A DNA stretch of 64,000 bases from an uncultured Methanosarcinaceae archaeon (GCA_963847185.1 CAWJYV010000007.1:480001-544000), one strand, 5' to 3'. Counted from the first letter of the stretch, positions 49,371 through 64,000 are shown. The notes: generated by a model from the letters alone, not told the origin. A program made the numbers and translations.

Positions 49371-52300
49371 ATGAATGTTAGTAAAAAGATCCTTGTTATT
49401 ATTTACATTATTTTTGCTCTTCTTACTTCAGTTGTTATTTTCGCGTCTCAGAATATCCTTTATTCAAGTTTTTCTTCCCTTGAGGATGATGAGGCAAATG
49501 ATAGCCTGGAAAGTGCAAGAAACTTCCTCGATTTTCAGGTTATGCAATTAAATGAGACTAATTCCGTGCTTTCCTCAAGGGAAGATGTCAGAGCTTTTAT
49601 GTTCAGTCAGGACCCTGGAGATCTCAGCAGGATTTCTTTCACAGATCTTTTCTCCCTAAGTGGATGTGACTTCATTTTTCTTGCGAATAGTTCAGGAAAT
49701 ATAATTTATAAGTTTTCGGGATCAAATAATACCAGTGATGCCCTGATATTTTCCGAGATCACAAGAAAAATAGATGGTGGAAATCTCCTTTGCAAGGACG
49801 CAAAAAGTCCTCTAAGTGGGCTTCTTACAATAGGAAGCAACTTTTCAATCGTTTCTTCTCACCCTGTACTTGCGGCACCCAATAGTGAAGAGATGATCGG
49901 GACAGTTATTCTGGGTAAGAATCTGGAACCCGATTTTACCTATTCTTTGCGCAATATTGCAGGAAATCATGTTTCGCTTTTTACTGAGGAATCAGCACCT
50001 GATTATTTGCAGCAAGCATTTCTAGACAATAAAAGCGAAAGTGTCTCATATACTGTCACAGCAAATGGAGTATCTCGAAATTATTGTATTCTCAAAGATA
50101 TCAATAATGAAACAGCTGCTGCGGTCCAGATAGACGCTAACAGTGATATAAGTGCAGTAGGCCAAGAATCTCTCAGGTACATTGTAATTTTCCTTTTGTT
50201 TGCAGGTCTGATGATTGGGGCAGGCTGTAAACTTCTACTTGATAAAGAAGTAGCCTCGAGGATAGTAGCAATTGATAATTTTGTGGAAAAGGTCGGAAAG
50301 GATGAAAATTCTTCTGAACGCTTCTCCATGGATGGAGACGATGAACTTTCACGATTGTCAGAGGGAATTAACCAGATGCTTGACCGTCTGAAAACGACTT
50401 CTGATAAAATCAAAATTCAAGAGCGTGAAAAAAACGTAATCCTCAATTCTCTCAGTGAGATGGTGGTTTTTATGGATCCAGACTTGAAGATCCTCTGGAT
50501 GAATAAAGCCTCTCTGGGCCACCTAAATCTAAAGTTTGAGGGCATAGTCGGACACCGTTATGAAGAGATCTATAGCTTATATCATAAGAATCCGGGTAAA
50601 TCTCCTGTACTGAAGGCAATAGAGTCCGGAAGCGAAGAGCTAGGGGAAGTCGTTACTCCTGATGGAAAGGTATGGATGATTCGTGCGAGCCTTGTGAAGG
50701 ATGAAAATGGTAAAATTACCGGTATTCTCCAGACAGGTCTCGATATTACCGAACATAAGCGTTCAGAAGAAAAGCTAATTCAGGCAAAACTGGAAGCTGA
50801 AGCTGCCAACCGTACAAAAAGTGAATTCCTCGCTAATATAAGTCACGAATTAAGGACGCCTCTGAATTCTGTCATCGGATTTTCGGATATCCTGCTTGAA
50901 AGGGTTTTCGGAGAGCTCAATGATAAACAATTAAAATATATAAATAACATCTCTACCAGTGGGAAGCATTTACTAAAACTCATAAATGATATCCTCGATC
51001 TCTCCAAAGTAGAAGCCGGAAAAATGGAACTTCATTACAGTGAATTTTCTGTTGATTCAGTTTTTGAGGAGGTTAAAGTAGTTCTCATCCCTCTCGCTCA
51101 GACAAAATCACTTGAGATTTACTTCAACGTAAAATCCGAGTTTACAACTCTTGAGGCTGACAGAAGCCGCCTGATTCAGATCCTTTATAACCTTGCAAGC
51201 AATTCAATCAAATTTACTCCCGAAGGGGGAAAAGTCACCATTTCTTGTATAAAGAGTGGAAGCTTAGCGTTAATCTCAGTAACAGATACCGGCATAGGAA
51301 TTTCTGCTGAAGACCAGAGAAAACTTTTCCAGCCTTTTACCCAGATTGATGCTTCCTCATCCAGACAGTATTGTGGAACAGGACTCGGACTAGCTCTTGT
51401 GAAAAAAATTGTAAATTTACATCAGGGAGATATCTGGGTTGAGAGTGATATTGGAAAAGGCAGCACTTTTACATTTTCAATTCCTCTTAGAAAACCGATC
51501 GATTCCAGGAAAGCTAATGAATCAGAACTCGAAGATGTTGTCCTGAATTTCGAGACGAACAAAGCGGAGGCGTTCTCAAAAGAATCTGCCGATGATCTTC
51601 AGGCCGATATAGAGATACTTGAAAGTTATCTCCCTGAAACAGAAGGTGGGAATCAGGGGCTTGTTCTTGTAGTTGATAACGATAAAAATTCCAATGATCT
51701 CCTTTCTATTGTATTAAGAGAGGCAGGGTATAGTATAGCTTCTCTTTTTAATGGGAAAAGTGTTCTGGAGACTGCAAGGAGGCTCAAACCTGATATTATT
51801 ACTTTTGATGTCCTCCTTCCAGACATTGATGGTTGGATTGTTTTGAGACAGCTCAGAAATGATCCTCAAACTGCCTCAATTCCGATACTTATTATTTCTT
51901 CGACAAATAATAACGAACTTGGAATTGTTCTTGGAGCGACATATTCCTTTACAAAGCCAGTAAAAAGATCAGAGATTGTGGGTTCCCTCAAAGAAATCAC
52001 CGGTAAATTACGGTTTGAAAATCCAAGAATTCTCGTTGTCGACAATGATGAAAATAACGTAGAACTGTTGAGTTCTATGATCGAACCCGAGGGTTTTGAG
52101 GTGGTCAAAGCTTATAGCGGAAGAGAAGGTCTGAAAAAGCTCTTTTCAGAAAAACAGCCTGATGTAGTAATCCTTGATCTTATGACGTCTTGTGTTAGTG
52201 GTTTTGATGTGATCTCAAGCATGAGGGCACATTTAAGCACAAAAAATGTTCCTCTTATTGTCTGCACGTCTGGGCAACTCACTGAGAAAAACATTAAAGA

Positions 52301-52436
52301 ATTGAACAGTAAATTGAAAGAGCATTTTATTTCTATTTTGAAAAAAGGCACTTTCGGAAGAAAAGAGTTAATTAATAGGATAAAACAATTAGCTATGCTG
52401 AAGAGGCTTAACGATGAAAGAAATTCTGATTGTTGA
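49371..52436 (+). CDS. Membrane hybrid histidine kinase (CHASE4-like, HAMP, PAS, HisKA, HATPase, 2 REC)
   Basis: Two TM helices; SHELRTPLN H-box; N, G1 (DTGIG), F and G2 (GTGLGL) boxes; two receiver domains. Confidence 0.93.
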   Translation: MNVSKKILVIIYIIFALLTSVVIFASQNILYSSFSSLEDDEANDSLESARNFLDFQVMQLNETNSVLSSREDVRAFMFSQDPGDLSRISFTDLFSLSGCDFIFLANSSGNIIYKFSGSNNTSDALIFSEITRKIDGGNLLCKDAKSPLSGLLTIGSNFSIVSSHPVLAAPNSEEMIGTVILGKNLEPDFTYSLRNIAGNHVSLFTEESAPDYLQQAFLDNKSESVSYTVTANGVSRNYCILKDINNETAAAVQIDANSDISAVGQESLRYIVIFLLFAGLMIGAGCKLLLDKEVASRIVAIDNFVEKVGKDENSSERFSMDGDDELSRLSEGINQMLDRLKTTSDKIKIQEREKNVILNSLSEMVVFMDPDLKILWMNKASLGHLNLKFEGIVGHRYEEIYSLYHKNPGKSPVLKAIESGSEELGEVVTPDGKVWMIRASLVKDENGKITGILQTGLDITEHKRSEEKLIQAKLEAEAANRTKSEFLANISHELRTPLNSVIGFSDILLERVFGELNDKQLKYINNISTSGKHLLKLINDILDLSKVEAGKMELHYSEFSVDSVFEEVKVVLIPLAQTKSLEIYFNVKSEFTTLEADRSRLIQILYNLASNSIKFTPEGGKVTISCIKSGSLALISVTDTGIGISAEDQRKLFQPFTQIDASSSRQYCGTGLGLALVKKIVNLHQGDIWVESDIGKGSTFTFSIPLRKPIDSRKANESELEDVVLNFETNKAEAFSKESADDLQADIEILESYLPETEGGNQGLVLVVDNDKNSNDLLSIVLREAGYSIASLFNGKSVLETARRLKPDIITFDVLLPDIDGWIVLRQLRNDPQTASIPILIISSTNNNELGIVLGATYSFTKPVKRSEIVGSLKEITGKLRFENPRILVVDNDENNVELLSSMIEPEGFEVVKAYSGREGLKKLFSEKQPDVVILDLMTSCVSGFDVISSMRAHLSTKNVPLIVCTSGQLTEKNIKELNSKLKEHFISILKKGTFGRKELINRIKQLAMLKRLNDERNSDC

Positions 52437-52779
52437 AGATAATCCAATGAATATGGAACTGATTCTGGATCTTCTGGAATTCTATGGGCACAACGTAACA
52501 GAAGCTGAGGACGGGATAAAAGCTCTTGAACGCCTTGCTGAGAAAAAGTTTGATCTCATCCTGCTGGATATGCAACTTCCAAAAATGGATGGTTTGGAAG
52601 TTCTGGATCGAATAAAAAAGAATCCTGCAACTGCGGCTATCCCTGTGATAGCTGTTACAGCCCATGCTATGAAAGGTAGTGAAGAGCATTTCATTGAAAT
52701 GGGCTGCGTGGATTATATTTCCAAACCCCTTGATATCCACAAGTTCAGGGCTTTGATTGATAAATATCTGGGAGAATAA
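52414..52779 (+). CDS. Single-domain response regulator (DivK/CheY-like)
   Basis: ILIVEDN, ILLDMQLPKMDG, VTAHAM, ISKP; overlaps the kinase stop. Confidence 0.93.
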   Translation: MKEILIVEDNPMNMELILDLLEFYGHNVTEAEDGIKALERLAEKKFDLILLDMQLPKMDGLEVLDRIKKNPATAAIPVIAVTAHAMKGSEEHFIEMGCVDYISKPLDIHKFRALIDKYLGE

Positions 52780-52879
52780 TCACCTGAGAAAATAACCGCC
52801 TGAGAAAATAATCGTCTGAGAAAATAATCGTCTGAGAAAATAATCGCCTGAGAATAATTCCCCGGAGAATAATCACCTG
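52772..52879. repeat. ~16-bp tandem repeat, about 7 degenerate copies, between convergent genes
   Basis: Unit gagaaaataatcg(t/c)ct; the first copy includes the receiver gene stop codon. Confidence 0.85.
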
Positions 52880-52894
52880 GCTTCATAATTAAAA

Positions 52895-53689
52895 TTATAT
52901 TTTCTCAATACGTCTGGACATCTCTTTATAATATACGAAGAGCTCTTCGCACCATCTAAGTGCGGTTTCGTCAAAACTCATCAGACGTTGATGGTCAAAC
53001 TTTCCCTTTTTATCGAAAAGTACAAGCGAACAAAAACGTTCTGTTACAACATCTTTAAGCGTTACGTTTTTGTCACAGACGTATATTTCAATGTTTTTCG
53101 ACTCTACAAGAAATTTCAGACTCTCGTAGTAGTCTTTTTTCATCCTCTCAAACACAGACTCTGTCAGGATGAGACATATTTCAGCTTCCTTTCTTACGAG
53201 TTCAGAGTAAATCTCAATGTAAAGGGGGTTGAAATAAGAAAGAAACATTTTTATGTGCTTTGATTCTAGAAGGTTATTCTTAAAATCTTCAGGCACCTCA
53301 AAAAGCCTGTTAAGATCCGCCTCAAGCATGAAATAGTTTCCCAATTCATTAATCCTGTTAAGAAGATGTTCGGGAATTGCAGTAAAATCATGGTTTGTCC
53401 AGTAATCGTAATTTTCCTCAAACACCCTTACGGTATCCAGCAGGGGCTCCATCTTTTCTACTACTATCTCCCCCATTTCAGAGAGTTTGTAGGTGTTTCT
53501 GTCATCCTGCACTATTAATCGTCCCTCTTTTAATTTTTTTATCTGGGGCATGATAGAAGTCGAATTGACATTAAGGGCAGTTTTGATTTCATCTCCAGTT
53601 TTAGGTCCTTCCTCAAGCAGGAGCAGCACATCTTTTCTTTTTTCTGATAAAAATGCCAAGTCAATAAGTGATATTTTCATTTTATCCAT
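52895..53689 (-). CDS. Msr-family wHTH regulator (third paralog)
   Basis: FLSEKRKDVLLLLEEGPK, ALRWCEELF; start probably 53689 or 53680 (track start 53761). Confidence 0.85.
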   Translation of the reverse strand: MDKMKISLIDLAFLSEKRKDVLLLLEEGPKTGDEIKTALNVNSTSIMPQIKKLKEGRLIVQDDRNTYKLSEMGEIVVEKMEPLLDTVRVFEENYDYWTNHDFTAIPEHLLNRINELGNYFMLEADLNRLFEVPEDFKNNLLESKHIKMFLSYFNPLYIEIYSELVRKEAEICLILTESVFERMKKDYYESLKFLVESKNIEIYVCDKNVTLKDVVTERFCSLVLFDKKGKFDHQRLMSFDETALRWCEELFVYYKEMSRRIEKI

Positions 53690-54349
53690 CTCCCCGGAAA
53701 CTCTTGAATGTACCTGAAAAAGCTCTTCTCTTTTATCTCTTGGAAAACAATAATATGACAATAGTCCTTTCTATTTTCTAAAGAATATAATTGAGGGGCT
53801 TTGCGAAATAATACTACACTATTTTTCAGTTGATTCCTTATATTTTTTTCCAAAAAAACTTATTTTTTATATAAATTCCTTTTTCACTCTTTTTTTCTTT
53901 TTAGAAATTTTCTTTAAAAATTACTTTCCGTCAATTACTTCTTTATTCAAAGTTTTAAACTTCTTTTTGACTTTTAGGCAATTTTTTAGTTCCTTCCCTA
54001 ATTTTTCTCTATAATATCAAGCTGTAATTTCCGTTCTGGGGTTAAATGTTGTTTTTCTCAGTCCTTGAAAAGTATCTGATGCTCTCTTTGAAAATTCATC
54101 TTTAAGGATTCTCTTTTCAATTTCTCCATGTGGGATAACCTAACGTCTAAAATTATGTACTATTATTTATATTTTTTCCAGTATCTTAATTGGCTTTGTT
54201 TACGTCCTCATAAAACTGAAGATAAAAGAGATCGGTCTGAAGATATATTTTTATAAGAAAAATGAGATAAAACCAGAGAAAAGGTAAGAGTGAAGTGAGG
54301 AATAAACGAAAAAGGGATTTTCTGCACGGGGCAGAAAAAATTTCATAAA

Positions 54350-54877
54350 TTATTTTGAGGCTTTTTTTACAAGAGCAAGAATTCCGCGCAGGATTTCTTT
54401 CGGTGAGGGAGGGTTTCCCGGAATCTTCATATCAACTGGCAGAATCTTATCAACACCTCCGAGAACGGCATAAGAACCTTTATAGATCCCGCCGTCGCAG
54501 GCATCGTCTCCTGCTGCGACCACAAATTTTGGAGAGGGCATGGCTTCATAGGTTTTTCTGACTGCTTCAGCCATATTCAGGGTTACTGCACCTGTGACTA
54601 GCAGGATATCGGCATGTCTCGGAGAAGCTACAAAAGATATCCCGAATCTTTCAACATCATAGTAGGGTGTTCCCAAATTCGAAATTTCAATTTCAGTTGA
54701 ATTATCGCTTCCGGAATCCAGCTCGCGGATTGCAAGGCTGCTCCTGAAAACTTTCGGGATTTCCTTCTTTATTTCCGCACCAAGGGTTTCTAATTCTTCA
54801 TCTCGAAATTCAAAGGTCTCAGTAACTTTCGGACGGAGGAATAGGGAAAGAGGATTTACCATAGTTAAGCCTCGCAT
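54350..54877 (-). CDS. NuoB/HyfI-like small subunit of an Ehr complex, lacking Fe-S cysteines
   Basis: YDVERFG.SFVASPRHADILLVTG.VT; canonical Cys positions read SDNST, GDDA and PGNPP. Confidence 0.85.
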   Translation of the reverse strand: MRGLTMVNPLSLFLRPKVTETFEFRDEELETLGAEIKKEIPKVFRSSLAIRELDSGSDNSTEIEISNLGTPYYDVERFGISFVASPRHADILLVTGAVTLNMAEAVRKTYEAMPSPKFVVAAGDDACDGGIYKGSYAVLGGVDKILPVDMKIPGNPPSPKEILRGILALVKKASK

Positions 54878-54903
54878 GTTTCTTTATTTTTTCATCATAA
54901 TAC

Positions 54904-56521
54904 TCAAAGGTCGGTTCCTGCATACGAAAGGTTAAGACTCTTATTAATCAGGGGGAAGTCAGGAACAATATTTCCGAGCACTGCATGTTCTATGGCCTGC
55001 CAGTTGCAGAATGAGGCAGTCCTTACCTTATAACGGTCAATGATCCCGTCTTTCAGGTAAACCCAATGCAGGTTCTGTCCTCTTGGAGCTTCTATCAGGG
55101 CAAGAGAGTAGCCGGTGGTCCGCATGTCGGAGTCATATTTAGCAGCATACACAGGCCCTCCAGAAACTCTTTCTATAAGCTGCAGGATAAGTTTTAAGGA
55201 AGCCCGAATTTCATCGGCTTTTACCTCAAACCGGGAGAATACATCTCCTTTTTTTCGAACTGAGGATTCAGGAGCAAATTTTTTGTAGGCTCCATAGGGC
55301 TTATCAATCCTGGTATCTGCAGGACAGCCCGAAGCTCTTGCCAGGGGGCCTGTGAGGTTAAGTGGGGAAATAAGCTCTTTTTTTATTACTCCCTGTCGTT
55401 GCAAATCTATCAATAAGGGAAGATGAGGACATAGCCCTCTCAAAAGCCTGTTCAAATACCTTGGAGAATTTTTTCAGGAAAGCAGGAAGTTCATTTAGGG
55501 ACGTATCTGATAAATCTTTTTTAAGCCCGCCAGGGGTCATAATTCCTCTTAAAAACCTTGAACCTGTAAGCTTTTCGTTTTGTCTCAAAACCTCTTCTCT
55601 TAATATCAAGAAAGGGCTTGCTACAAGAGCAAAACCTACATCTACAGCCATGCCTGCGAGGTCCCCAAGTAATGAGTAAATCCGTTCAAGTTCCAGTACC
55701 ACTGCTCTCAAATGTTCTGCTCTTTCCGGCACTTCTATTCTATAGATCTGTTCCACAGCCATGCAAAATCCTGCTGCATTTGCCGCACTTTCGTCCCCAC
55801 TTACGGCCTCGGCAAGAGGGACACACTCCAGGGGAGTCTTTCCTTCAGCCAGTTTTTCTATGCCCCTGTGCTTGTAAAACAACCGGATTTCCAGGCTGAA
55901 AATGGGTTCTCCTATTACACTGAACCTGAAATGTCCGGGCTCAATAATTCCTGCATGGACAGGCCCTACAGGAATCTGGTACACACCTTCTCCTTTCACC
56001 TGCCTGAACCTGTATTCTGTACTGGAGGACTCGGCAGGAAGGATGGGCCCATTTTTGAATCCTTTTTGCAGGGGATGGAAGTCTTCAGGATAACATTCAT
56101 GCAGGAAGAGTCTTCTGTTATCAAACGCTCCTGCAAACTCCAGTCCGAAGCCATCTCTTATTTCCCGCTCAAACCAGGAAGCTGAAGGGAAAATCTCAGC
56201 AACTGAATGAATCTTTTTTTCTTTCCTGGTTTCAAGGACAAGAACCAAAATATGCGCCCTACCGGCCTGCTTGAAAACATAAAAAAGATTAAAATCAGTG
56301 TTTTTCTCAAAAGCTTCTGCGCAGAAGAGCCCTATAAGGCTGAAGCTCCTTTCTGCGAGGATTTCAGATACCTTTCGAAGTCCGGTTTCCGAGATACCAA
56401 TATATGTCTCGTTTTCGCGGGTATTGAGGAGTGTTGCCTCTTCTTCTGCAATACTCGAAATTTTTGAAACTATTTCAATTGCACTTATGTTAGTTTTCAT
56501 ATCCATGTACAAACCCCTCAC
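54904..56521 (-). CDS. NuoCD/HyfG-like large subunit of an Ehr complex (no NiFe cysteines); frameshifted at 55391-55393
   Basis: WFERE, GPVHAGIIEPGHFRF, HRGIEKL, ELERI, GPLARASG, EAPRG, DFPLINKSLNLSYAGTDL; removing one G joins ORFs 55358-56521 and 54904-55455. Confidence 0.85.
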
Positions 56522-58065
56522 AAATATCCAAGCTCAAGAATTATTGAATCAAGCAGATTTCTCAAAGGTTCTGGGAAATAAAGTCCCAGAACAAGGGCAA
56601 GGACCAGCAGGAAAATTGTCGGGATCCTCATTCCTCTCCTTACATTATAAGGTGAAATCAAATTACTTTTTTTGTGGCTGATTTTTTCAGTGAGTTTTTC
56701 AGTGAGTTTTTCAGATCCCGTTCTTTCAGAAGCCAGGGATTTGTTCTCATGTCCTTCTTTTCCTTCCTCGAGAGAAACTCTTGAGAAAGCTTTTAACAGG
56801 AAGTTTGCAAAGGATGCGGATGCAAGGATAAGCATTAGCAGCAGCGCCAGGGTCAGATAGGGTGAAATTTTTGCGCTCTCCAGAAGAATAAAAAACTTCG
56901 CCGGGAAAAGAGGGAAAGGCGGCATCCCTACTATGGCTATGCTCCCCAGAATAAGAGTCCATGCTGCACGTGGTTGGAGTTTAAATACATCCTTTATATC
57001 TTCACGCATGTTGCTTCCGTACTGCCTGTGCAGGACACCTGCAGAAAAGAGCAAAATTTCCTTTATCAGGACATGGCCAAGCATATAAAAAAGAACCCAG
57101 AAAAGAGCAAGAGGAGTTCCTATTCCTATCCCTATAAGAAGAAGTCCCATGTGCTCGACACTTGAAAAGGCTATCAATTTCTTCAGGTTTCTCTGCTGAA
57201 GCATACTGAATGAAGCCAGAGCAATTGAGAAAACTCCTGCTGCTATCAGGATTAAAGACGCCTGTGGAGCTACCTCACTCTCTTTAAGCAGAGCATATAT
57301 CCTGATAATGCCGTAGATCCCCAGATTTTGCATGAGCCCTGAGAGAATTGCACTTACTGATGGGGCTCGTGCGTAAGCATCCGGAATCCATGTATGGAAA
57401 GGAGCTATTCCTGCTTTTGCTCCGAAACCTATGAAGACAAAGGTAAAACTCGCAAGGAGGAGGGGAGGTGAAAAACTTGATGCATTCGCTGCAAGTTTTG
57501 TCCAGCTAAGAGTTCCTTCCCCTAGAGTTAGTTCCGAAAGAGTGAAAAGGAAAATCAACCCAAGGAACGCAAAAAGCATGGATCCGGAGACTATGAAGAC
57601 ATATTTTAGGGCGGCATCTATGTTTTCTCTTGCGGAAAGGATTGCTACAAGTACGGCAGCGCAGACTGTCGTAAGCTCTACAAAGATCCAGAAAAGCGCC
57701 AGATTATCCGAAAAAAGCGCAATAGTAGCCGTGACAAGCAGGAGGTTAAAAGCAAGGTAGAAAGTTTTCAGGTTTTTGGGGTCAAGATCTCCTGCTTCCA
57801 TAAGGCTGTCGGTATATCCCTTGGCATAGAAGGCTGCTGCAGAGAATCCAAGTGCAGTTATCAATTCCACATAAAGGTTGAGGTGGTCCAGGTAAAGATA
57901 GTCTCCATACCGGGCAGGCAAATCAAGGACTAGTAATGCTGCGCAGGTTAGAACAAGATGCAGCAGGGCATTGCCTGCGGCAAGGAAATTCATGAGTTTG
58001 TGGGATTTTGGAATAAGGCCCAGAGCCAGAAAAATTCCCATTGTTAAGAGGTAGTAACGGATCAT
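56518..58065 (-). CDS. hyfF: HyfF-like proton-translocating antiporter-type subunit
   Basis: WIFVELTT, AALKY, GFGAKAGIAPFHTWIPDAY, KKLIAFSSVEHMG; likely ATG at 58065 coupled to the hyfE stop. Confidence 0.85.
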   Translation of the reverse strand: MIRYYLLTMGIFLALGLIPKSHKLMNFLAAGNALLHLVLTCAALLVLDLPARYGDYLYLDHLNLYVELITALGFSAAAFYAKGYTDSLMEAGDLDPKNLKTFYLAFNLLLVTATIALFSDNLALFWIFVELTTVCAAVLVAILSARENIDAALKYVFIVSGSMLFAFLGLIFLFTLSELTLGEGTLSWTKLAANASSFSPPLLLASFTFVFIGFGAKAGIAPFHTWIPDAYARAPSVSAILSGLMQNLGIYGIIRIYALLKESEVAPQASLILIAAGVFSIALASFSMLQQRNLKKLIAFSSVEHMGLLLIGIGIGTPLALFWVLFYMLGHVLIKEILLFSAGVLHRQYGSNMREDIKDVFKLQPRAAWTLILGSIAIVGMPPFPLFPAKFFILLESAKISPYLTLALLLMLILASASFANFLLKAFSRVSLEEGKEGHENKSLASERTGSEKLTEKLTEKISHKKSNLISPYNVRRGMRIPTIFLLVLALVLGLYFPEPLRNLLDSIILELGYL

Positions 58066-58748
58066 AAGTATCTGCCTCCTGTCCATATCTGCAGTTTTCT
58101 AAATTTCTGCCTGTACTCCTCAATACTTGAATCCATTCCTACAGCCAGGATAGTTGTTAGCATTACCAGTATCACAAGGTCAATTATTATCAGGACTTCT
58201 ATTATGAAAGGAATTTCAGTGACAAAGAGTCCGAACATCAAGACTCCATTTTCCATACTGAGGTAACCCAGAGCTTTTGTAATTACTCTCTTCCTGCTGA
58301 AAATGACAAGCATCCCCATCAATGTTAAAGAAACTCCTATGACAGCCCCGAAGAAGAAGAGCTTTGAGAGGGAAAGGTCTTCGAAGATCCGGGAAAGGAA
58401 AGAATAGGAAAGCAGGATAAGGCCTATGCTTAACAGAAGAGAAGTTGTAGGTTCGAGATAGGTAAAATGCAAATCTCTTCCGATTTTGATTTTTTCTTCT
58501 ATCCTGGAGATAAAGTATGGGATTAAAATCACTTTACTTGTCAGGGTCAGGCCTGCCAGTAGCAAAAGCTGTCCCTTCCCGTCTATAAGGTAGAGAAGGA
58601 CCGAGACTGCAGCAAGCAGGAAGGATTGGATGGTATATGTGGTCAGAACTGAACTAAGGTTACGGGTTGAGATGATCAAACCTGCACTGATGAGGACAAA
58701 AACAAAAAGGATCTTGATTAGACCTTCAATAAAGAGGGGGTCAATCAT
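58062..58748 (-). CDS. hyfE: HyfE-like membrane subunit
   Basis: KVILIP, GYLSMENG motif, hydrophobic; operon position. Confidence 0.82.
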   Translation of the reverse strand: MIDPLFIEGLIKILFVFVLISAGLIISTRNLSSVLTTYTIQSFLLAAVSVLLYLIDGKGQLLLLAGLTLTSKVILIPYFISRIEEKIKIGRDLHFTYLEPTTSLLLSIGLILLSYSFLSRIFEDLSLSKLFFFGAVIGVSLTLMGMLVIFSRKRVITKALGYLSMENGVLMFGLFVTEIPFIIEVLIIIDLVILVMLTTILAVGMDSSIEEYRQKFRKLQIWTGGRYL

Positions 58749-59686
58749 GCAAACACCTCTATAAGAATTGTAAGGGCTGAGAAGAAAAATGCCATCACGT
58801 AAAAAGCAGGAAGCCTGAAGAGACGCATCTTTGCGAGGGATGACTCAAAGAGTCCTATAATGATGGCAAGCAGCCCGGCTTTCAGAAGAAAGAGGACAGC
58901 TGAAACTGCAATTTTTCCTGAATTTAACTCAGTACTGAGTCCTATCGGAATAATAGTATTGATTAATATTCCCATCAAAAGTAACTGTTTGAGAGCGTGG
59001 GCAAGCTCGAGTAGGGCCAGATTCTTTCCAGTCTGTTCCAGTATCATGGCCTCATTAATCATTGTTAACTCAAGATGGGTTGCCGGGTTGTCGACAGGCA
59101 GCCTGCCGGTCTCCACAATAAGAATTATAAAAAGAGAAATTGAGACCAGGACAAGTGTAGGGTTCAGAGGAAGAATCTTGCTTGCTGTCAGCGCAAACAT
59201 TTCATGCATATTCAGGCTTTTAAGGACAAAAGCAAGGGCTGCAAAAGATACCACCATACTTGGTTCTATTACGGCTGCCAAGCTCATCGAACGGGAACTT
59301 CCCATGCCCCCAAAGGCACTTCCTGCATCAAGTCCTCCAAGTGCCGTAAAGAAACGCTCCAGTGCCAGGAGATAGAGGAAAACGATAACATGGCCGAATC
59401 CTCCCACGGGTTCGGGTACAAACACCAGGGGAACAAAGAGGGAAGCAATGAGCAGGGTAGAAAGATTAAGGTATGGAGTAAAACGCATAATCCAGGAGGA
59501 TGTAGGAGAATAAACTGTCTCTTTGTGCAGAAGTTTCCTCAAATCATAATATACCTGGAAAAGTCTTGGCCCTTTTCTTCCCTGGGCATATGCTTTTACT
59601 TTCCTTATAAGAGCCATATACAGAGGGGCTGCCAGTAAAGCGAAGATGGGATTTAACACGGCGAAGAGCAGAAAGGAACTGTTCAT
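58745..59686 (-). CDS. hyfC: HyfC/HycD (NuoH-like) membrane subunit
   Basis: RKVKA..QGRKGP, GGMGSSR, ETGRLPVDNP.THLELTMI.EAM.LE. Confidence 0.88.
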   Translation of the reverse strand: MNSSFLLFAVLNPIFALLAAPLYMALIRKVKAYAQGRKGPRLFQVYYDLRKLLHKETVYSPTSSWIMRFTPYLNLSTLLIASLFVPLVFVPEPVGGFGHVIVFLYLLALERFFTALGGLDAGSAFGGMGSSRSMSLAAVIEPSMVVSFAALAFVLKSLNMHEMFALTASKILPLNPTLVLVSISLFIILIVETGRLPVDNPATHLELTMINEAMILEQTGKNLALLELAHALKQLLLMGILINTIIPIGLSTELNSGKIAVSAVLFLLKAGLLAIIIGLFESSLAKMRLFRLPAFYVMAFFFSALTILIEVFA

Positions 59687-61614
59687 ACGAGACCTCCGGT
59701 CACGAGAATCAGGATGAGAACTGCAATAAATGCATAGAGGACATAACTGTCAAGTTTTCCGTTCTGCAGTTTTGAGACCATCTTTGAAATACTGTCGATT
59801 GCATATGCAGGTGGAGTATAGAGATACTCCTCAAAAATGCGAAGCAGGCGAATTTCCACTTTTCCGTTTTTGAAAAGACTTTCCTGCATATCAAAATATT
59901 CAGGTTTATGTACTATTCTTGTTCTGTAGATACCTTTGAAAATCATTACAAGCGGTTCGGAGAAACCCGCAGAGCTGTATTCCATTGAAGAAGTAAGGGC
60001 TGGAATTCCACAGCCCCAGGTTTCGCTGATTCGGGCAGGGTTCTTTGAACGCATTATAAGGAAAAGAGCCGTGTATGTCAGACCAAGCAAAAGTCCGAGC
60101 AGGAAAAGATCCGGAAATTCTAAGTTCAGGCCTGCAAGGGAAAGGAGCTGTTTTGAAAAGAGTCCTGTAAGGATGCAGAGGACTGCAGGTACGGCCGGGC
60201 CAAAAAGCATGGGGTTTTTGACTTCTTCTGCCATTTTGCTTTGTTCCGAACGAGGAATGGCCAGACATGTAATCCCGAAAAGTTTTACGAATAGGACAGC
60301 TGCAAGAGCACCTGTAAGAGCAAAACTTGAGAGTGCGATTATTAAAAGCACGGTAAGCAGGGGTTCGGTAAGGGCTGAAGACTGTAGAAAAGCCTGGTAG
60401 AGCAGGAGTTCTCCGGCAAAACCGTTTGTCGGAGGAAGAGCTGCAATAGAAATTGACCCTATCATGAAGAGAGCCGAGGTTGAAGGCATGCTTTTTACAA
60501 GGCCTCCGAAAGCTTCGATGTTTCGCGTACCTGTAGCATGGACTATTGAACCTGCACAGAGGAAAAGGAGACTTTTGAAAAGGGCATGGTTAAAAGAGTG
60601 GAAACAGGCTCCTGCGAGGCTTAATAGGGCTAGAGCTTCCAGCCCCTCTACTTTAAATATTACATACATGCCTATCCCGATAAAAATGATCCCTATGTTT
60701 TCGATACTGCTGTAGGCAAGCAGTCTTTTTATGTCACTTTCTTTAAGGGCGTAGATCACTCCCAATAAAGCCGTGACACAGCCTCCTATAAGAATGAGCA
60801 CTCCCCACCAGAGTTCGGGGACGGAAACAGAGAGTAAAAAACGTAGAAAGCCGTAGATTGCAACCTTTAGCATGACACCTGACATAAGAGCTGAGGCGCT
60901 GGAAGGAGCTGCAGGATGGGCATATGGAAGCCATTTGTGGAAAGGTACAATCCCTGCTTTGATCCCAAAACCAGTGAAAAGGCAGAGGAAGGGCAGAGCC
61001 AGGGAGCTTGCCGGGTAATCCAGCTGTCCGAACTCAGCAGAACCGGTAAGCCTGAAAAGGCTTATAAAACCCAGGAAAAGAAAAGTTGTACTCAGGCTTG
61101 TCATTACAAAGTAAAAGAAACCTGCTTTTTTGTTTTCTTCCGAGGAATAATTATGGAGCACAAGAAGCAGGGAGGAAAGGGACATTATCTCCCAAAAAAA
61201 CAGGAAGCCTACCATATTTCCTGCAAGCACCACAAGGAGCATTGCAAGAATAAAAAGATTTGTGAGGGCTGTTTGCAGGTTCTTTCTGGCTTCGCTTTCA
61301 GCATGTTCCACGTATTCGACCGAATAAATTGAAACTCCGGGTATAACTGCTGCAATTAGCAAAATGAAGCCTGCTGAAAGTCGATCTGCAGCAAGAGTGA
61401 AATTCAATCCGGGAAGATATCCGAAGGTTGGAAAGGCAGGCTCTTTTCCTGTGTAAAGAATAATGCCTGCAAAAGCCAGGAGCAGGATTGAAGAAATTAA
61501 AGATAGGCCGAAGGAAGCCTTTCTTGTGTTTTTAGTGCGGTACAGAAGGGGGAGGAAAGTTCCGGATATCAGGGCTAAAACAGCGCTGTAAATAAAGGCT
61601 TCGAGCAAATACAT
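59683..61614 (-). CDS. hyfB: HyfB-like (NuoL/M, MrpD-type) antiporter subunit
   Basis: FWEIMSLSS, GFGIKAG.VPFH.WLPYAHP.AP, KRLLAYSSIENIG, NHALFK.LLF, LPP.NGF.GE, TWGCG. Confidence 0.88.
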   Translation of the reverse strand: MYLLEAFIYSAVLALISGTFLPLLYRTKNTRKASFGLSLISSILLLAFAGIILYTGKEPAFPTFGYLPGLNFTLAADRLSAGFILLIAAVIPGVSIYSVEYVEHAESEARKNLQTALTNLFILAMLLVVLAGNMVGFLFFWEIMSLSSLLLVLHNYSSEENKKAGFFYFVMTSLSTTFLFLGFISLFRLTGSAEFGQLDYPASSLALPFLCLFTGFGIKAGIVPFHKWLPYAHPAAPSSASALMSGVMLKVAIYGFLRFLLSVSVPELWWGVLILIGGCVTALLGVIYALKESDIKRLLAYSSIENIGIIFIGIGMYVIFKVEGLEALALLSLAGACFHSFNHALFKSLLFLCAGSIVHATGTRNIEAFGGLVKSMPSTSALFMIGSISIAALPPTNGFAGELLLYQAFLQSSALTEPLLTVLLIIALSSFALTGALAAVLFVKLFGITCLAIPRSEQSKMAEEVKNPMLFGPAVPAVLCILTGLFSKQLLSLAGLNLEFPDLFLLGLLLGLTYTALFLIMRSKNPARISETWGCGIPALTSSMEYSSAGFSEPLVMIFKGIYRTRIVHKPEYFDMQESLFKNGKVEIRLLRIFEEYLYTPPAYAIDSISKMVSKLQNGKLDSYVLYAFIAVLILILVTGGLV

Positions 61615-62347
61615 TCACTCCTGAAGTCGGAATTTGGCTGTTGAATCAAAATATGAAAATAGGTTTTCAGTCCGGGTGGAGAGTAAAGACTCTCCAGTTC
61701 GCATCCCACTTAAAGCGAGATTCTTGAAACTGTCCTCTGTATATGAGATAATGGGAATAGTTCTAAAATTCGTATTTACATTCCACCGTAAATTTCTATT
61801 TCAAGGATCATTTTTCCCGGAAACGTTTTTGCCTAATACTTATCAATATTATATAGGTTTACATTATAAAGTTTATTGTACGCTTATGTAACTATTATTC
61901 ATTATTCTTATTTTTTAACAATGAAAATGGTATAAAGTTCAAAAATCCTTCAAAAAAGATTTTCTTTCTCTTTTATGTCCTAAATTCCTCTTTATTTCAT
62001 CCTCTTTTCTATGGGTGAAATATATATAATTATCACGATTTTTAATGGAAATAATTTTAACTCTTTGATTATTTTTACATTATTCCACTAACTTATTCTA
62101 AAACTTACCTCTAACTTCTAAAGATTTTAAATCCATTTAGTGTAATTTATTCAAATTATGATCTGTGATTTTTTTCTTTCGTCTGTATTCTTTAATCAAA
62201 TGTGGTTAAGAGGATCTAAAAAAATGTCATTTTCAAACTTTCAGTTCCATAAAATACATAGACTTCTTTTAGAATAGGATCAATAATGAAAAAGAAATGT
62301 TAATCTCGGAAAGACCCGAGGTATATATTTTAAAATTCCAACTTCTG

Positions 62348-63367
62348 TTAATCAGATTCTTCATGTGTAATTTGGTATAATGTCTTCATAAGGGAATACT
62401 TTTTGGTGTGTAGGGTTGCAGTGTAGTAAGGCACAACTTCTGGAGAAAAACCCATTATGAAATCCGCAAATCTGGCAATGTTTGCTGCCATCACGTTCAT
62501 GTGATCGAAATTTCTGGATTTCAGGTCAAGAAACTCATTATAATACAGCAGGGAGTTGGCACCCGTCCGACCAAAGGCAGGGTTAAGGGCTGAAGACCAG
62601 GTAACCGTACATCCCTTACCGTACAGGTTTAGATGGGATGCAATGGCTTCTCCTTCGGGAGTTTCCGTGACAAACATATATCCTACGTCTTTCTCCTGAA
62701 TCAACTTAAATACTCTTTCAAAAAATTCTTTTGGAACAGGAAGTGCTAGATTTTGCTTTTCATAAACCATGGAAAGTAGATGGTAATAGATCTCGGGATC
62801 GTTTGATATTCTCGTTTTGAGTCCTGCCTCTTCTGCGGATTTAAGCTCCCTTCGGATCTTTCTTGAGAGGTTGCCATCTACATCTTCCTTGAGATTTAGA
62901 TAATGGGTATAGCGCACACTGGAGTCCCATCCATTCCATGTAAAAGGTCTTATATCCTCAATTCCCGGAGAAAATGTCAGATGAATACTCTCAAATCCCT
63001 GTTTGCAGAGAAACTCTCTGAGAGCATTAAAGACTTCATGAGTTTCCTGAACTTTTTTACTTGCTTTGGGGCTTGCTCCCTCTTTTATAAGGGGGCCGCA
63101 ATAGTCAGTCATATTACAGGTAGAAGATGCCACTTTCATAATTCCTTTCAAATTTTTAATGAATATAGGACACCCTCCCACAAGCTCATCTTTTCGGAAA
63201 CAACCATAAATCTTGAGCTCTCTCGAAAGAACATCCCTGCAGATTCCCAGCCAGTCACTCATGTGAAAGAGTGTCCCAGGTTGAGCTTTTTCTACAAGCA
63301 GGTCCCATTCCTTATATTCGGATGGCAGTAATTCTCTAACTTCAATTTCGTCCATTTTAAGCCCCAT
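62348..63367 (-). CDS. GNAT/FemAB-like acetyltransferase-domain protein of a glycan cluster
   Basis: EWD.LV....GTLFH..DWL, RKIRRELKSA, GANSLL; adjacent to a glycosyltransferase. Confidence 0.75.
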   Translation of the reverse strand: MGLKMDEIEVRELLPSEYKEWDLLVEKAQPGTLFHMSDWLGICRDVLSRELKIYGCFRKDELVGGCPIFIKNLKGIMKVASSTCNMTDYCGPLIKEGASPKASKKVQETHEVFNALREFLCKQGFESIHLTFSPGIEDIRPFTWNGWDSSVRYTHYLNLKEDVDGNLSRKIRRELKSAEEAGLKTRISNDPEIYYHLLSMVYEKQNLALPVPKEFFERVFKLIQEKDVGYMFVTETPEGEAIASHLNLYGKGCTVTWSSALNPAFGRTGANSLLYYNEFLDLKSRNFDHMNVMAANIARFADFIMGFSPEVVPYYTATLHTKKYSLMKTLYQITHEESD

Positions 63368-63382
63368 AATGATTATTCATTT

Positions 63383-63464
63383 CTTAAGCGTGGATAGATA
63401 GCTTCGTATCTTAGTGTGGATAGATAACTTCGTACCTTAACGTGGATAGATAACTTCGTATCTT
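63383..63464. repeat. 26-bp tandem repeat x3
   Basis: gtggatagata(a/g)cttcgta(t/c)ctt starting at 63390, 63416 and 63442. Confidence 0.85.
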
Positions 63465-63501
63465 TATAAGTTATAGGAAAACATAAGACAGATCAGTTTT
63501 T

Positions 63502-63999
63502 TCAGTCCTGAAGTTCTGCTTTGCAGACTCTGTCAACTTGTTTCGCAACGCTGTACCAGCTGTAATTTTCAGTAACATAACTTAAACCTTTTGAACCCAT
63601 TTTCTTACTTAATTCAGAATTTTCAAGCAGTTTTAAGATAGCTTCTGCAAGCTCACCAGGATTTTCCGGAAGGACAGGGATGCCTCCCTCGGAAGCTTCA
63701 AGTGCATCTGAAACACCGCTTATATTGCTTGCAACAACTGGTTTTCCGCAGGCCATGTACTCATATAGTTTTAAAGGAGATAAGCCAATCTTTGCATTTC
63801 TGGCAAATATGAAGGGGGCAACACAGGCATCGCTTGCGTTAATGTAGCGAGGTACTCGCTCGTAAGCAACTACACCTGTAAAAATGAACCTTTTTTCAAC
63901 TCCAAGTTCTTTCGAGATATTAATAAGTTCATTTTTCATTATCCCATCTCCAACAATCAGAAAATAGCATTCTGGAAATCGGGAAAGTACGGACGGAGC
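63502..63999 (-). CDS. Glycosyltransferase family 4 (GT-B); 5' part lies outside the window
   Basis: Frame is open to the window edge (…FLIVGDG…); SPLKLYEYMACGKPVVAS, YSW motifs. Confidence 0.88.
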   Translation of the reverse strand, partial: APSVLSRFPECYFLIVGDGIMKNELINISKELGVEKRFIFTGVVAYERVPRYINASDACVAPFIFARNAKIGLSPLKLYEYMACGKPVVASNISGVSDALEASEGGIPVLPENPGELAEAILKLLENSELSKKMGSKGLSYVTENYSWYSVAKQVDRVCKAELQD

Positions 64000-64000
64000 T

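Follow-up and report, generated by a model that had tools for sequence, protein, structure and literature searches.

What can a membrane complex with the fold of respiratory complex I do for a cell once its peripheral arm has lost the cysteines that would hold its redox cofactors? The question is raised by six closely spaced minus-strand genes, located by a scan of open reading frames (ORFs) at positions 54350-61614 of a 64,000-nucleotide stretch of DNA, here called the window, from an uncultured Methanosarcinaceae archaeon (GCA_963847185.1 CAWJYV010000007.1:480001-544000). Judged by its predicted products, the block is an ehrABCDLS operon encoding an Ech/energy-converting-hydrogenase-related (Ehr) complex, because all six proteins have matches in Pfam, NCBIfam or PDB that point to this family and the composition matches that of the Ehr clusters in Methanospirillum hungatei and Geobacter sulfurreducens. 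An earlier reading of the sequence alone, termed the original prediction below, had recognised the six packed genes and the Ehr-type complex, and both hold; its single "fused NuoCD-like" gene does not, being spread in this assembly over two ORFs in different frames.

The name Ehr dates back about twenty years. Six genes of M. hungatei (Mhun_1817-1822) carry the names ehrABCDLS (PMC4704411), and EhrA, EhrC, EhrL and EhrS are described as subunits encoded by G. sulfurreducens GSU0739-45 (PMC7894505); as far as the portions of text found from these sources go, both clusters have the same six-subunit composition and order as the window block. The portions found of four papers call the function of Ehr unknown and describe a large subunit without the NiFe CxxC motifs (PMC4704411, PMC7894505, PMC10284858, PMC4378227). 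The locus is a further member of this known, functionally unsolved family. Our literature search found no Ehr complex named in Methanosarcina, and the small-subunit ligands of Ehr are not discussed in the text found, the scope of which excludes Coppi 2005, Marreiros 2013 and supplements.

Both Metal Sites of the Peripheral Arm are Replaced

The large subunit EhrL was compared with Escherichia coli HycE (7z0s_E, E 1.2e-70) through an intact ortholog (locus L017). In this alignment RVCGICGFAHS of HycE lies over EAVSGDESAANA and DPCYSCTD over NLSYAGTD, and the four Cys positions of the NiFe site are taken by Ser, Glu, Ser and Gly (CGIC to SGDE, CYSC to SYAG). On the minus strand of the window, EAVSGDES (55787-55810) thus stands in place of the N-terminal NiFe motif RxCGxCxxxH, with one Cys exchanged for Ser and the other for Glu, and LSYAGTDL (54907-54930), at the end of ehrL, stands in place of DPCxxC, just as the original prediction had read them. 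The NiFe CxxC motifs are likewise absent from EhrL of all 20 relatives aligned (16 congeners and 4 genomes of other families), and among 67 EhrL sequences SGDE is at least 97% conserved while the C-terminal LSYAGTDL is nearly invariant. The Pfam NiFeSe_Hases profile scores under its cut-off, and the four Cys of a group 4 [NiFe] hydrogenase are missing.

The small subunit is encoded by ehrS (54350-54862, minus strand), a NuoB/HycG-like gene of 170 codons with a clear Pfam Oxidored_q6 match (E 4e-27, 94.9 bits against a cut-off of 27), the orthologs of which do not use the upstream ATG at 54877. Alignment with bovine PSST puts GSCANGGG over GDDACDGG and PGCPP over PGNPP, and alignment with the genome's own Ech-type paralogs puts CNSCNGCDIE over DSGSDNSTEIE. 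None of the four cluster-ligand columns keeps its Cys: they hold D53 (54704-54706), T56 (54695-54697), D120 (54503-54505) and N150 (54413-54415), all on the minus strand, with the codons GAT, ACT, GAT and AAC, each of which is two changes away from a Cys codon. The loss of all four [4Fe-4S] ligands and the distance of the two replacement codons of the first motif from Cys, both claimed beforehand, are borne out. The only Cys left in EhrS is C122 (54497-54499, minus strand), which the original prediction had singled out as an off-position residue. It is indeed alone, but it is no novelty and not a new ligand, since 39 of the 98 four-Cys representatives described below share a Cys at this position.

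The fold itself is kept. EhrS matches PDB sequences at E 8e-31 (HycG at E 7e-30), its AlphaFold model reaches a predicted local distance difference test (pLDDT) value of 92.5, and Foldseek aligns this model with PSST/NuoB, HycG and MbhJ at E of about 1e-15 and template modelling (TM) scores of 0.7-0.86 (MbhJ 0.86, PSST about 0.8). With the NuoB fold retained, homology would therefore place the four replaced residues together at the former cluster site. FpoB of the same genome is normal and has its four Cys. Among the ORFs scanned at 52.9-63.4 kb, Pfam detected no ferredoxin/NuoI-like gene, in agreement with the original prediction. At the level of sequence, these replacements show that the peripheral pair EhrL/EhrS cannot bind NiFe or a Cys-ligated cluster, and the complex would then be unable to pass electrons.

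The Loss of the Ligand Cysteines is Conserved and Under Selection

The next question is whether such a loss could be decay. The genome belongs with Methanosarcina, the genus recorded for close homologs of its proteins, and the Cys-less pattern of EhrS is found in 12/12 orthologs of this genus, in all 17 rows of a genus alignment (the window and 16 congeners) and in each of the best 120 matches of a large protein database, which extend to 70% identity. It reads GSDN.. / GD[DE]AC.GG /.G[NST]PP; all four ligand positions lack Cys, and 60 of the best 120 matches have a single Cys. Across 71 EhrS sequences of the clade, which are 65-92% identical, D53 is present in 71/71 and D120, C122 and N150 in 70/71 each, while position 56 holds T, A, P or V. 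Named contigs carry members of the clade at 65-94% identity, and their metagenome-assembled genome (MAG) labels span at least six archaeal groups, the record labels being Methanosarcina, Methanoregula and other Methanomicrobiales, Altiarchaeales, Bathyarchaeota, Thermoplasmata, Nanoarchaeota and Aenigmatarchaeota.

Selection was measured as the ratio of nonsynonymous to synonymous substitution (dN/dS) by the Nei-Gojobori method, pairwise within the genus and only for pairs with dS of 0.05-2.5. The medians are 0.137 for EhrA, 0.072 for EhrB, 0.087 for EhrC, 0.105 for EhrD, 0.112 for EhrL and 0.076 for EhrS. Within the genus EhrS is the best conserved subunit, at 82-93% identity, whereas EhrD has 52-87% and the N-terminal part of EhrL 56-79%. 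The check that the original prediction had proposed, a conserved Cys-less clade with dN/dS well below 1, is thus answered by the 16 aligned congeners, and its argument against simple decay or miscalls at the ligand sites holds. Its suggestion of a "vestigial" arm falls, given the rank of EhrS among the subunits, its low dN/dS and the near-invariance of three of the four replaced positions. The loss of the cysteines is evidently a conserved, selected state and neither decay nor the product of miscalls, because the pattern is found in every genus ortholog aligned and in the best 120 matches, the clade positions are nearly invariant, dN/dS is low and the sites in sister clusters are intact.

These sister clusters come from four genomes of other families of the same order (Methanosarcinales), in which six genes form a syntenic cluster. 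Here too the NiFe Cys are missing from the large subunit (ERISGDNSAAHA / LSYSGNDM or near variants), and the small subunit keeps all four Cys (GSCNACE or GSCNGCE; GSCAC.GG; PGCPP); it is in the additional loss of all four cluster ligands from EhrS that the window's clade differs from them. The Ehr family thus includes complexes that have the cluster and others that do not. Of the 150 nearest small-subunit representatives of sequence clusters formed at 50% identity, 98 have four ligand Cys, 7 three, 3 two, 6 one and 20 none, and 16 have a gap in a ligand column. The expectation that the NuoB-like subunit "normally keeps its cluster" is accordingly right for the four other-family Methanosarcinales, but not as a rule, with 20/150 representatives free of ligand Cys and 16/150 retaining one to three, these being scattered over several parts of the tree. 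When the four-Cys and zero-Cys states are mapped by parsimony on a FastTree of 209 rows, at least 7 changes are required, a rough count from a quick tree of a short protein, and in this same rough tree the window's clade falls inside a wider Cys-less group that is itself nested among four-Cys lineages.

Orthologs of EhrS with 82-92% identity occur in 18/24 sampled congeners, and the EhrA equivalog in 40/59 Methanosarcina genomes, or 28/39 of those of high quality. Methanosarcina acetivorans is the only one of 14 control genomes with the EhrA equivalog.

The Membrane Subunits Keep the Charges of Ion-Translocating Relatives

If the peripheral arm is without cofactors, is the membrane arm still equipped for transport? 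The two antiporter-type subunits are encoded by ehrA (59683-61614, minus strand; 643 residues, NuoL/MrpA/HyfB-like) and ehrD (56518-58086, minus strand; 522 residues, NuoM/N-, MrpD- and HyfF-like). EhrA matches Pfam Proton_antipo_M at E 7e-62, with Proton_antipo_N weak and under cut-off, and reaches 993 bits against a cut-off of 794 for the NCBIfam equivalog NF006418, "hydrogenase membrane subunit". EhrD matches Proton_antipo_M at E 1.3e-48 and the equivalog NF006427 with 740 bits against 511, and its best PDB matches are 6u8y_H of MBS and MbhH (6cfw_H), with MrpD following at E 3e-26. Between them lie ehrB (58745-59686, minus strand), encoding a NuoH/HycD-like subunit of 313 residues (Pfam NADHdh, E 1e-34) that matches HycD (7z0s_D, E 6.6e-38) and MbhM (6cfw_M, E 3.3e-24), and ehrC (58062-58748, minus strand), encoding a HyfE-like membrane subunit of 228 residues. 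Genes overlap by 4 nucleotides at the A/B, B/C and D/L junctions and by 25 at C/D, and a gap of 26-41 nucleotides separates ehrL from ehrS.

EhrC matches a single family, and does so under the cut-off: NCBIfam PRK11492, "hydrogenase 4 membrane subunit", with E 1.1e-16 and 61 bits where 136 are required; no match was obtained in Pfam, in PDB by sequence or with Foldseek at E <= 0.001. The AlphaFold model (pLDDT 78.9) has seven predicted helices, and in a VIA-align search it reached Z <= 9.2 among unrelated helical bundles, with NuoJ, NuoK, MbhD and MrpF at only Z 7-8.5 and the first three of these at 7.5-8.5. No MrpB/C/E/F/G small-subunit match was found for the six genes in Pfam or NCBIfam.

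Charged residues are invariant in all four membrane subunits: E142, K219, H226, K227, K347 and E402 of EhrA (50 clade sequences); E141, E192, D199, E206, E212, E217 and E227 of EhrB (62 sequences); E166, E184 and D190 of EhrC (62 sequences, and also a 32-row alignment); and E137, K224, H231, K342 and K397 of EhrD (54 sequences). Those of EhrD align with counterparts in MbhH and the MBS subunit. The charges characteristic of Mrp-type subunits are all among the invariant ones, namely E137, K224 and K397 of EhrD and E142, K219 and E402 of EhrA, which we take to be the Glu of transmembrane helix 5, the Lys of helix 7 and the Lys/Glu of helix 12 in MrpA/D-like subunits.

Two loci of the set show anomalies in these subunits. 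At one (L028, G005:C9) ehrA carries one in-frame TAG and EhrD is shorter (459 residues), and at the other (L013, G019:C35) the match to EhrA begins only at position 105. Breaks or errors of assembly may lie behind these anomalies, and the TAG might also be explained by read-through.

Is the ehrL Gene Intact in This Strain?

In this assembly ehrL is read as two minus-strand ORFs in different frames. The 5' part (55358-56521, 387 residues) contains the NuoC-like domain and the start of the NuoD-like domain (Pfam Complex1_30kDa and the first 86 positions of Complex1_49kDa), and its frame ends, after the frameshift, at a premature TAA (55360-55358). The 3' part (54904-55455, 183 residues, true coding from about 55392) continues in the +1 frame with positions 84-170 of Complex1_49kDa. 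Alignment to relatives and contigs traces the split to an insertion of one base at 55389-55393 on the minus strand, giving GGG in place of GG. Here the window reads ACAGGGAGTAAT and relatives read ACAGGAGT(A/G/T)AT; on the plus strand the site is a run of C at 55391-55393.

The extra base seems private to this assembly. The gene is uninterrupted in 11/11 congener loci and in 20/20 longer loci (16 congeners and 4 other-family genomes). Logan contigs of four metagenome runs (X1-X4) were placed on the region; X2 has no contig across the insertion site, and all 3/3 covering runs (X1, X3, X4), which come from three studies and whose contigs are mostly 95-99% identical, are one letter short at 55389. 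The assembly's own reads were not among these runs, and the best run found contains 0.51 of the sampled words of the stretch. When 110 long orthologs were compared with a complete congener, 101 were full-length in this genome, 6 partial or otherwise unclear and 3 frame-split (C6:33563-34355, C8:846836-848856 and C8:804271-804898), and a stretch of four or five G or C lies at every one of the three junctions. The assembly, which has 10 contigs with a total of 4.04 Mb, the window being on contig C7, thus seems to suffer from systematic homopolymer indels. A second Oxidored_q6 gene of the hydrogenase small-subunit type, at C10:613742-614264, is likewise broken into adjoining fragments that lie in different frames and match profile positions 60-127 and 1-68.

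Could the operon nevertheless be a recent pseudogene in this strain, the insertion being real and the complex absent or made only through rare slippage? The two frames and the premature TAA are there in the assembly, loss is tolerated elsewhere in the genus, with the cluster absent from 11/39 high-quality congeners, and a run of seven A lying 8 nucleotides downstream could in principle restore the frame occasionally; this run is also present in relatives, where there is no frameshift. Against such an inactivation, the operon is intact and conserved apart from this break, in both halves of ehrL as in the other five genes, the near-identical environmental contigs lack the extra base, and the same assembly is frame-split at G/C runs in 3/110 orthologs and in the second hydrogenase small-subunit gene. 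Moreover, ehrL also forms two ORFs in two MAGs (L037 and L097), which is the pattern expected of homopolymer errors. Because the extra base is private to this assembly and the other frame-splits fall at G/C runs, we consider that the break is probably a homopolymer error of the assembly rather than a real recent inactivation; the pseudogene is the less probable alternative, though one to be reckoned with.

Gene Neighborhood

Partners encoded beside the block might disclose what it is coupled to. Neighbors were surveyed at 80 named loci, and gene order was examined by crude ORF clustering at 53 loci, those that extend 7.6 kb or more upstream of ehrS. The exact A-B-C-D-L-S order is found in 40/53, and the other 13 deviate by split genes, spurious antisense ORFs from the greedy caller or divergence. 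Nothing but the six-gene block itself is constant; its neighbors are lineage-specific, none is common to all lineages, and no electron-input module (NuoE/F, HycB/F or Fdh) was found beside it in the survey. These comparisons of gene order show the six genes to be a block that apparently moves between lineages as a self-contained unit. Spread of the block by horizontal transfer would fit, since the G+C content of the operon (44.4%) differs from that of the genome (39.9%) and EhrS of MAGs assigned by their labels to different archaeal phyla still shares 65-75% identity within the clade; flanking intergenic DNA has 32-34% G+C. One Altiarchaeales MAG (L059) holds two ehr-type series on a single 20-kb locus, A-B-C-D-L followed by A-B-C-D.

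Downstream of ehrS the window contains a FilR1-family helix-turn-helix regulator (52895-53761, minus strand; Pfam FilR1_middle, E 4.7e-38, and HVO_A0261_N). A gene of this family follows ehrS in 13/16 congener loci and in 19/80 named loci, all of them Methanosarcina-type. Besides this regulator, the Methanosarcina loci have genes for a response regulator, a histidine kinase and a P-type ATPase on the downstream side. On the upstream side they carry a RibD_C protein and a DrrAB-type ABC exporter, where the window has a GNAT gene instead. At 49371-52779 on the plus strand, an ORF for a putative sensor kinase of 1021 residues overlaps the start of a response-regulator ORF of 121 residues. Only in Methanosarcina does this kinase/response-regulator pair, like the P-type cation ATPase, share synteny with ehr. 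We did not count the FilR1 regulator, the response regulator, the kinase and the ATPase as functional evidence, their synteny being confined to Methanosarcina. An ABC-ATPase neighbor that recurs at 20 loci was also rejected as a cross-lineage partner, as NCBIfam resolves it into a heterogeneous set, with generic DrrAB-type exporters at some loci and PstB/PhoU at another.

In Methanoregula the block is accompanied by GNAT, beta-carbonic anhydrase, ferritin-, glutaredoxin- and FTR-like genes and an alpha/beta hydrolase. An Rfam scan of 52000-64000 revealed no riboswitch upstream of the operon; a hit to the enterobacterial small RNA STnc540 inside ehrA (61331-61495, plus strand), with 23.9 bits against a gathering score of 38 and E 0.11, was taken as chance.

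Comparison with Known Systems

The best solved-structure matches of EhrL and EhrB are HycE and HycD of the E. coli formate hydrogenlyase/hydrogenase-4 type (Hyc/Hyf; 7z0s), and EhrS strongly matches HycG; EhrC resembles HyfE, and EhrA and EhrD resemble HyfB and HyfF. Unlike Hyc/Hyf, the Ehr complex of the window has no NiFe site, Fe-S cluster, HycF/HycB ferredoxin-like subunits or formate dehydrogenase partner. MBH and MBS of Pyrococcus furiosus (6cfw, 6u8y) carry clusters, a catalytic site and a Mrp-like Na+ module with MrpE/F/G-type subunits. EhrD is closest to MBS subunit H and MbhH, and EhrS resembles MbhJ, yet Pfam found no counterpart of the Mrp-like Na+ module in the six ehr genes.

Mrp Na+/H+ antiporters (7qru, 6z16, 7d3u) have antiporter-type subunits with the same conserved charges and transport ions without redox chemistry; they do so without NuoH-, NuoD- or NuoB-like subunits, whereas Ehr keeps these as its most conserved parts. 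With respiratory complex I and Fpo, Ehr shares the core NuoB-CD-H-L-M/N module, and it differs from them in lacking the N2 cluster, NuoI, NuoE/F/G and separate NuoA/J/K genes.

Proposed Function and Alternatives

In our reading, to which we give a probability of roughly 0.55, the Ehr complex is a redox-independent H+/Na+ translocator with a conserved, carboxylate-lined pocket between EhrL and EhrS. It is the reading that best accounts for the absence of ligands, the conserved peripheral arm, the invariant membrane charges and the self-contained block, and it retains from the original prediction the idea of a complex I-like ion translocator uncoupled from electron transfer. The complex consists of the antiporter-type EhrA and EhrD, the NuoH-like EhrB, the HyfE-like EhrC and the peripheral pair. 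In the archaeal clade the NiFe Cys have been replaced by Ser/Glu and Ser/Gly, and the [4Fe-4S] Cys by Asp, Thr/Ala, Asp and Asn, after which the replacements stayed almost invariant. H+ and/or Na+ would then be moved without electron transfer, by a secondary antiporter or by a gradient-driven or gradient-sensing device. A pocket at the EhrL-EhrS-EhrB junction (D53, D119, D120 and N150 of EhrS; SGDE and GTDL of EhrL) could serve as a coupling, gating or cation-binding site and would address the NuoH-like EhrB in the way that the quinone site or the NiFe site of relatives does. Either the opposing ion gradient might drive transport, as it does in Mrp, or the binding of a ligand or metal might do so. 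More tentatively, we propose that the clade might use this invariant carboxylate/amide pocket in place of electron transfer to drive or gate its antiporter modules, the pocket acting as a cation-binding or proton-loading site; this is a possibility that we would not yet prefer to others.

Several points weigh against a translocator of this kind. Transport, the specificity for an ion and the driver are all things that we infer from the genes, and the literature search found no experiment on any Ehr complex in the portions of text that it returned. No homolog of MrpE, MrpF or MrpG was found by Pfam or NCBIfam, so Ehr is probably not simply an Mrp antiporter. Since 11 of the 39 high-quality Methanosarcina genomes lack the EhrA equivalog, some members of the genus can do without the complex. 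Real indels also favor homopolymer runs, so the frameshift of ehrL could be genuine. Lastly, carboxylates can ligate metals, and the pocket may be a metal site without Cys.

This last point leads to an alternative that we regard as unlikely, in which the complex is coupled to non-redox chemistry, such as energy-coupled CO2 hydration, or has built a new carboxylate-ligated metal site in the L-S pocket. Cyanobacterial NDH-1/CupA and DabAB are energy-coupled CO2 hydration systems. The replaced positions of Ehr hold conserved Asp, Glu and Asn and not arbitrary residues, and a beta-carbonic anhydrase gene (Pro_CA, E 1e-49) lies directly upstream of ehrA in 10/80 loci, which is a weak hint, as all ten are Methanoregula-type (e.g., L060:1606-2220, minus strand). 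This gene is on the strand opposite to ehrA and occurs in one lineage, and therefore counts as a single synteny event; the Methanosarcina loci and the ORFs scanned around the operon revealed no carbonic anhydrase gene, and no neighbor is common to all lineages.

We think it very doubtful that the complex is still a redox enzyme, with a cofactor on unconventional ligands (Asp, Cys122) or with electrons from a separately encoded partner. In other proteins Fe-S clusters with an Asp ligand are known, and C122 is kept in 70/71 sequences. The four canonical ligands are gone all the same, C122 is a frequent non-ligand in four-Cys homologs (39/98) and the sole Cys in 60/120 clade proteins, and EhrL too has lost all four of its NiFe ligands. 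The cluster-keeping sister Ehr complexes show what a retained site looks like. As for a partner, a formate dehydrogenase has been proposed for other Ehr complexes in the portions found of two papers (PMC6349859, PMC7894505), but no NuoI/HycF-like, NuoE/F-like or fdh gene lies in or beside the Methanosarcina block. Least probable of all is a structural or sensory membrane scaffold that merely keeps the complex I fold and moves no ions, since, although no driving reaction can be named and transport is deduced from residues, the buried charges of all four membrane subunits are invariant across lineages, which is hard to explain without ion conduction, and dN/dS is 0.07-0.14 in all six genes.

Implications for the Ehr Family

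If the complex is a redox-independent translocator, the complex I fold would here serve something other than redox-driven pumping. A version that is incapable of holding NiFe or Fe-S and yet has the peripheral arm as its most conserved part narrows the question of what Ehr complexes are for, and the carboxylate pocket, should its proposed role be true, would represent a new way of powering or controlling the conformational engine of complex I. The automated names "hydrogenase membrane subunit" and "NADH-quinone oxidoreductase subunit B family protein" are no evidence of H2 or NADH metabolism in organisms that carry the block. The main value of the finding is that the family is present in genetically tractable Methanosarcina, including the model species M. 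acetivorans.

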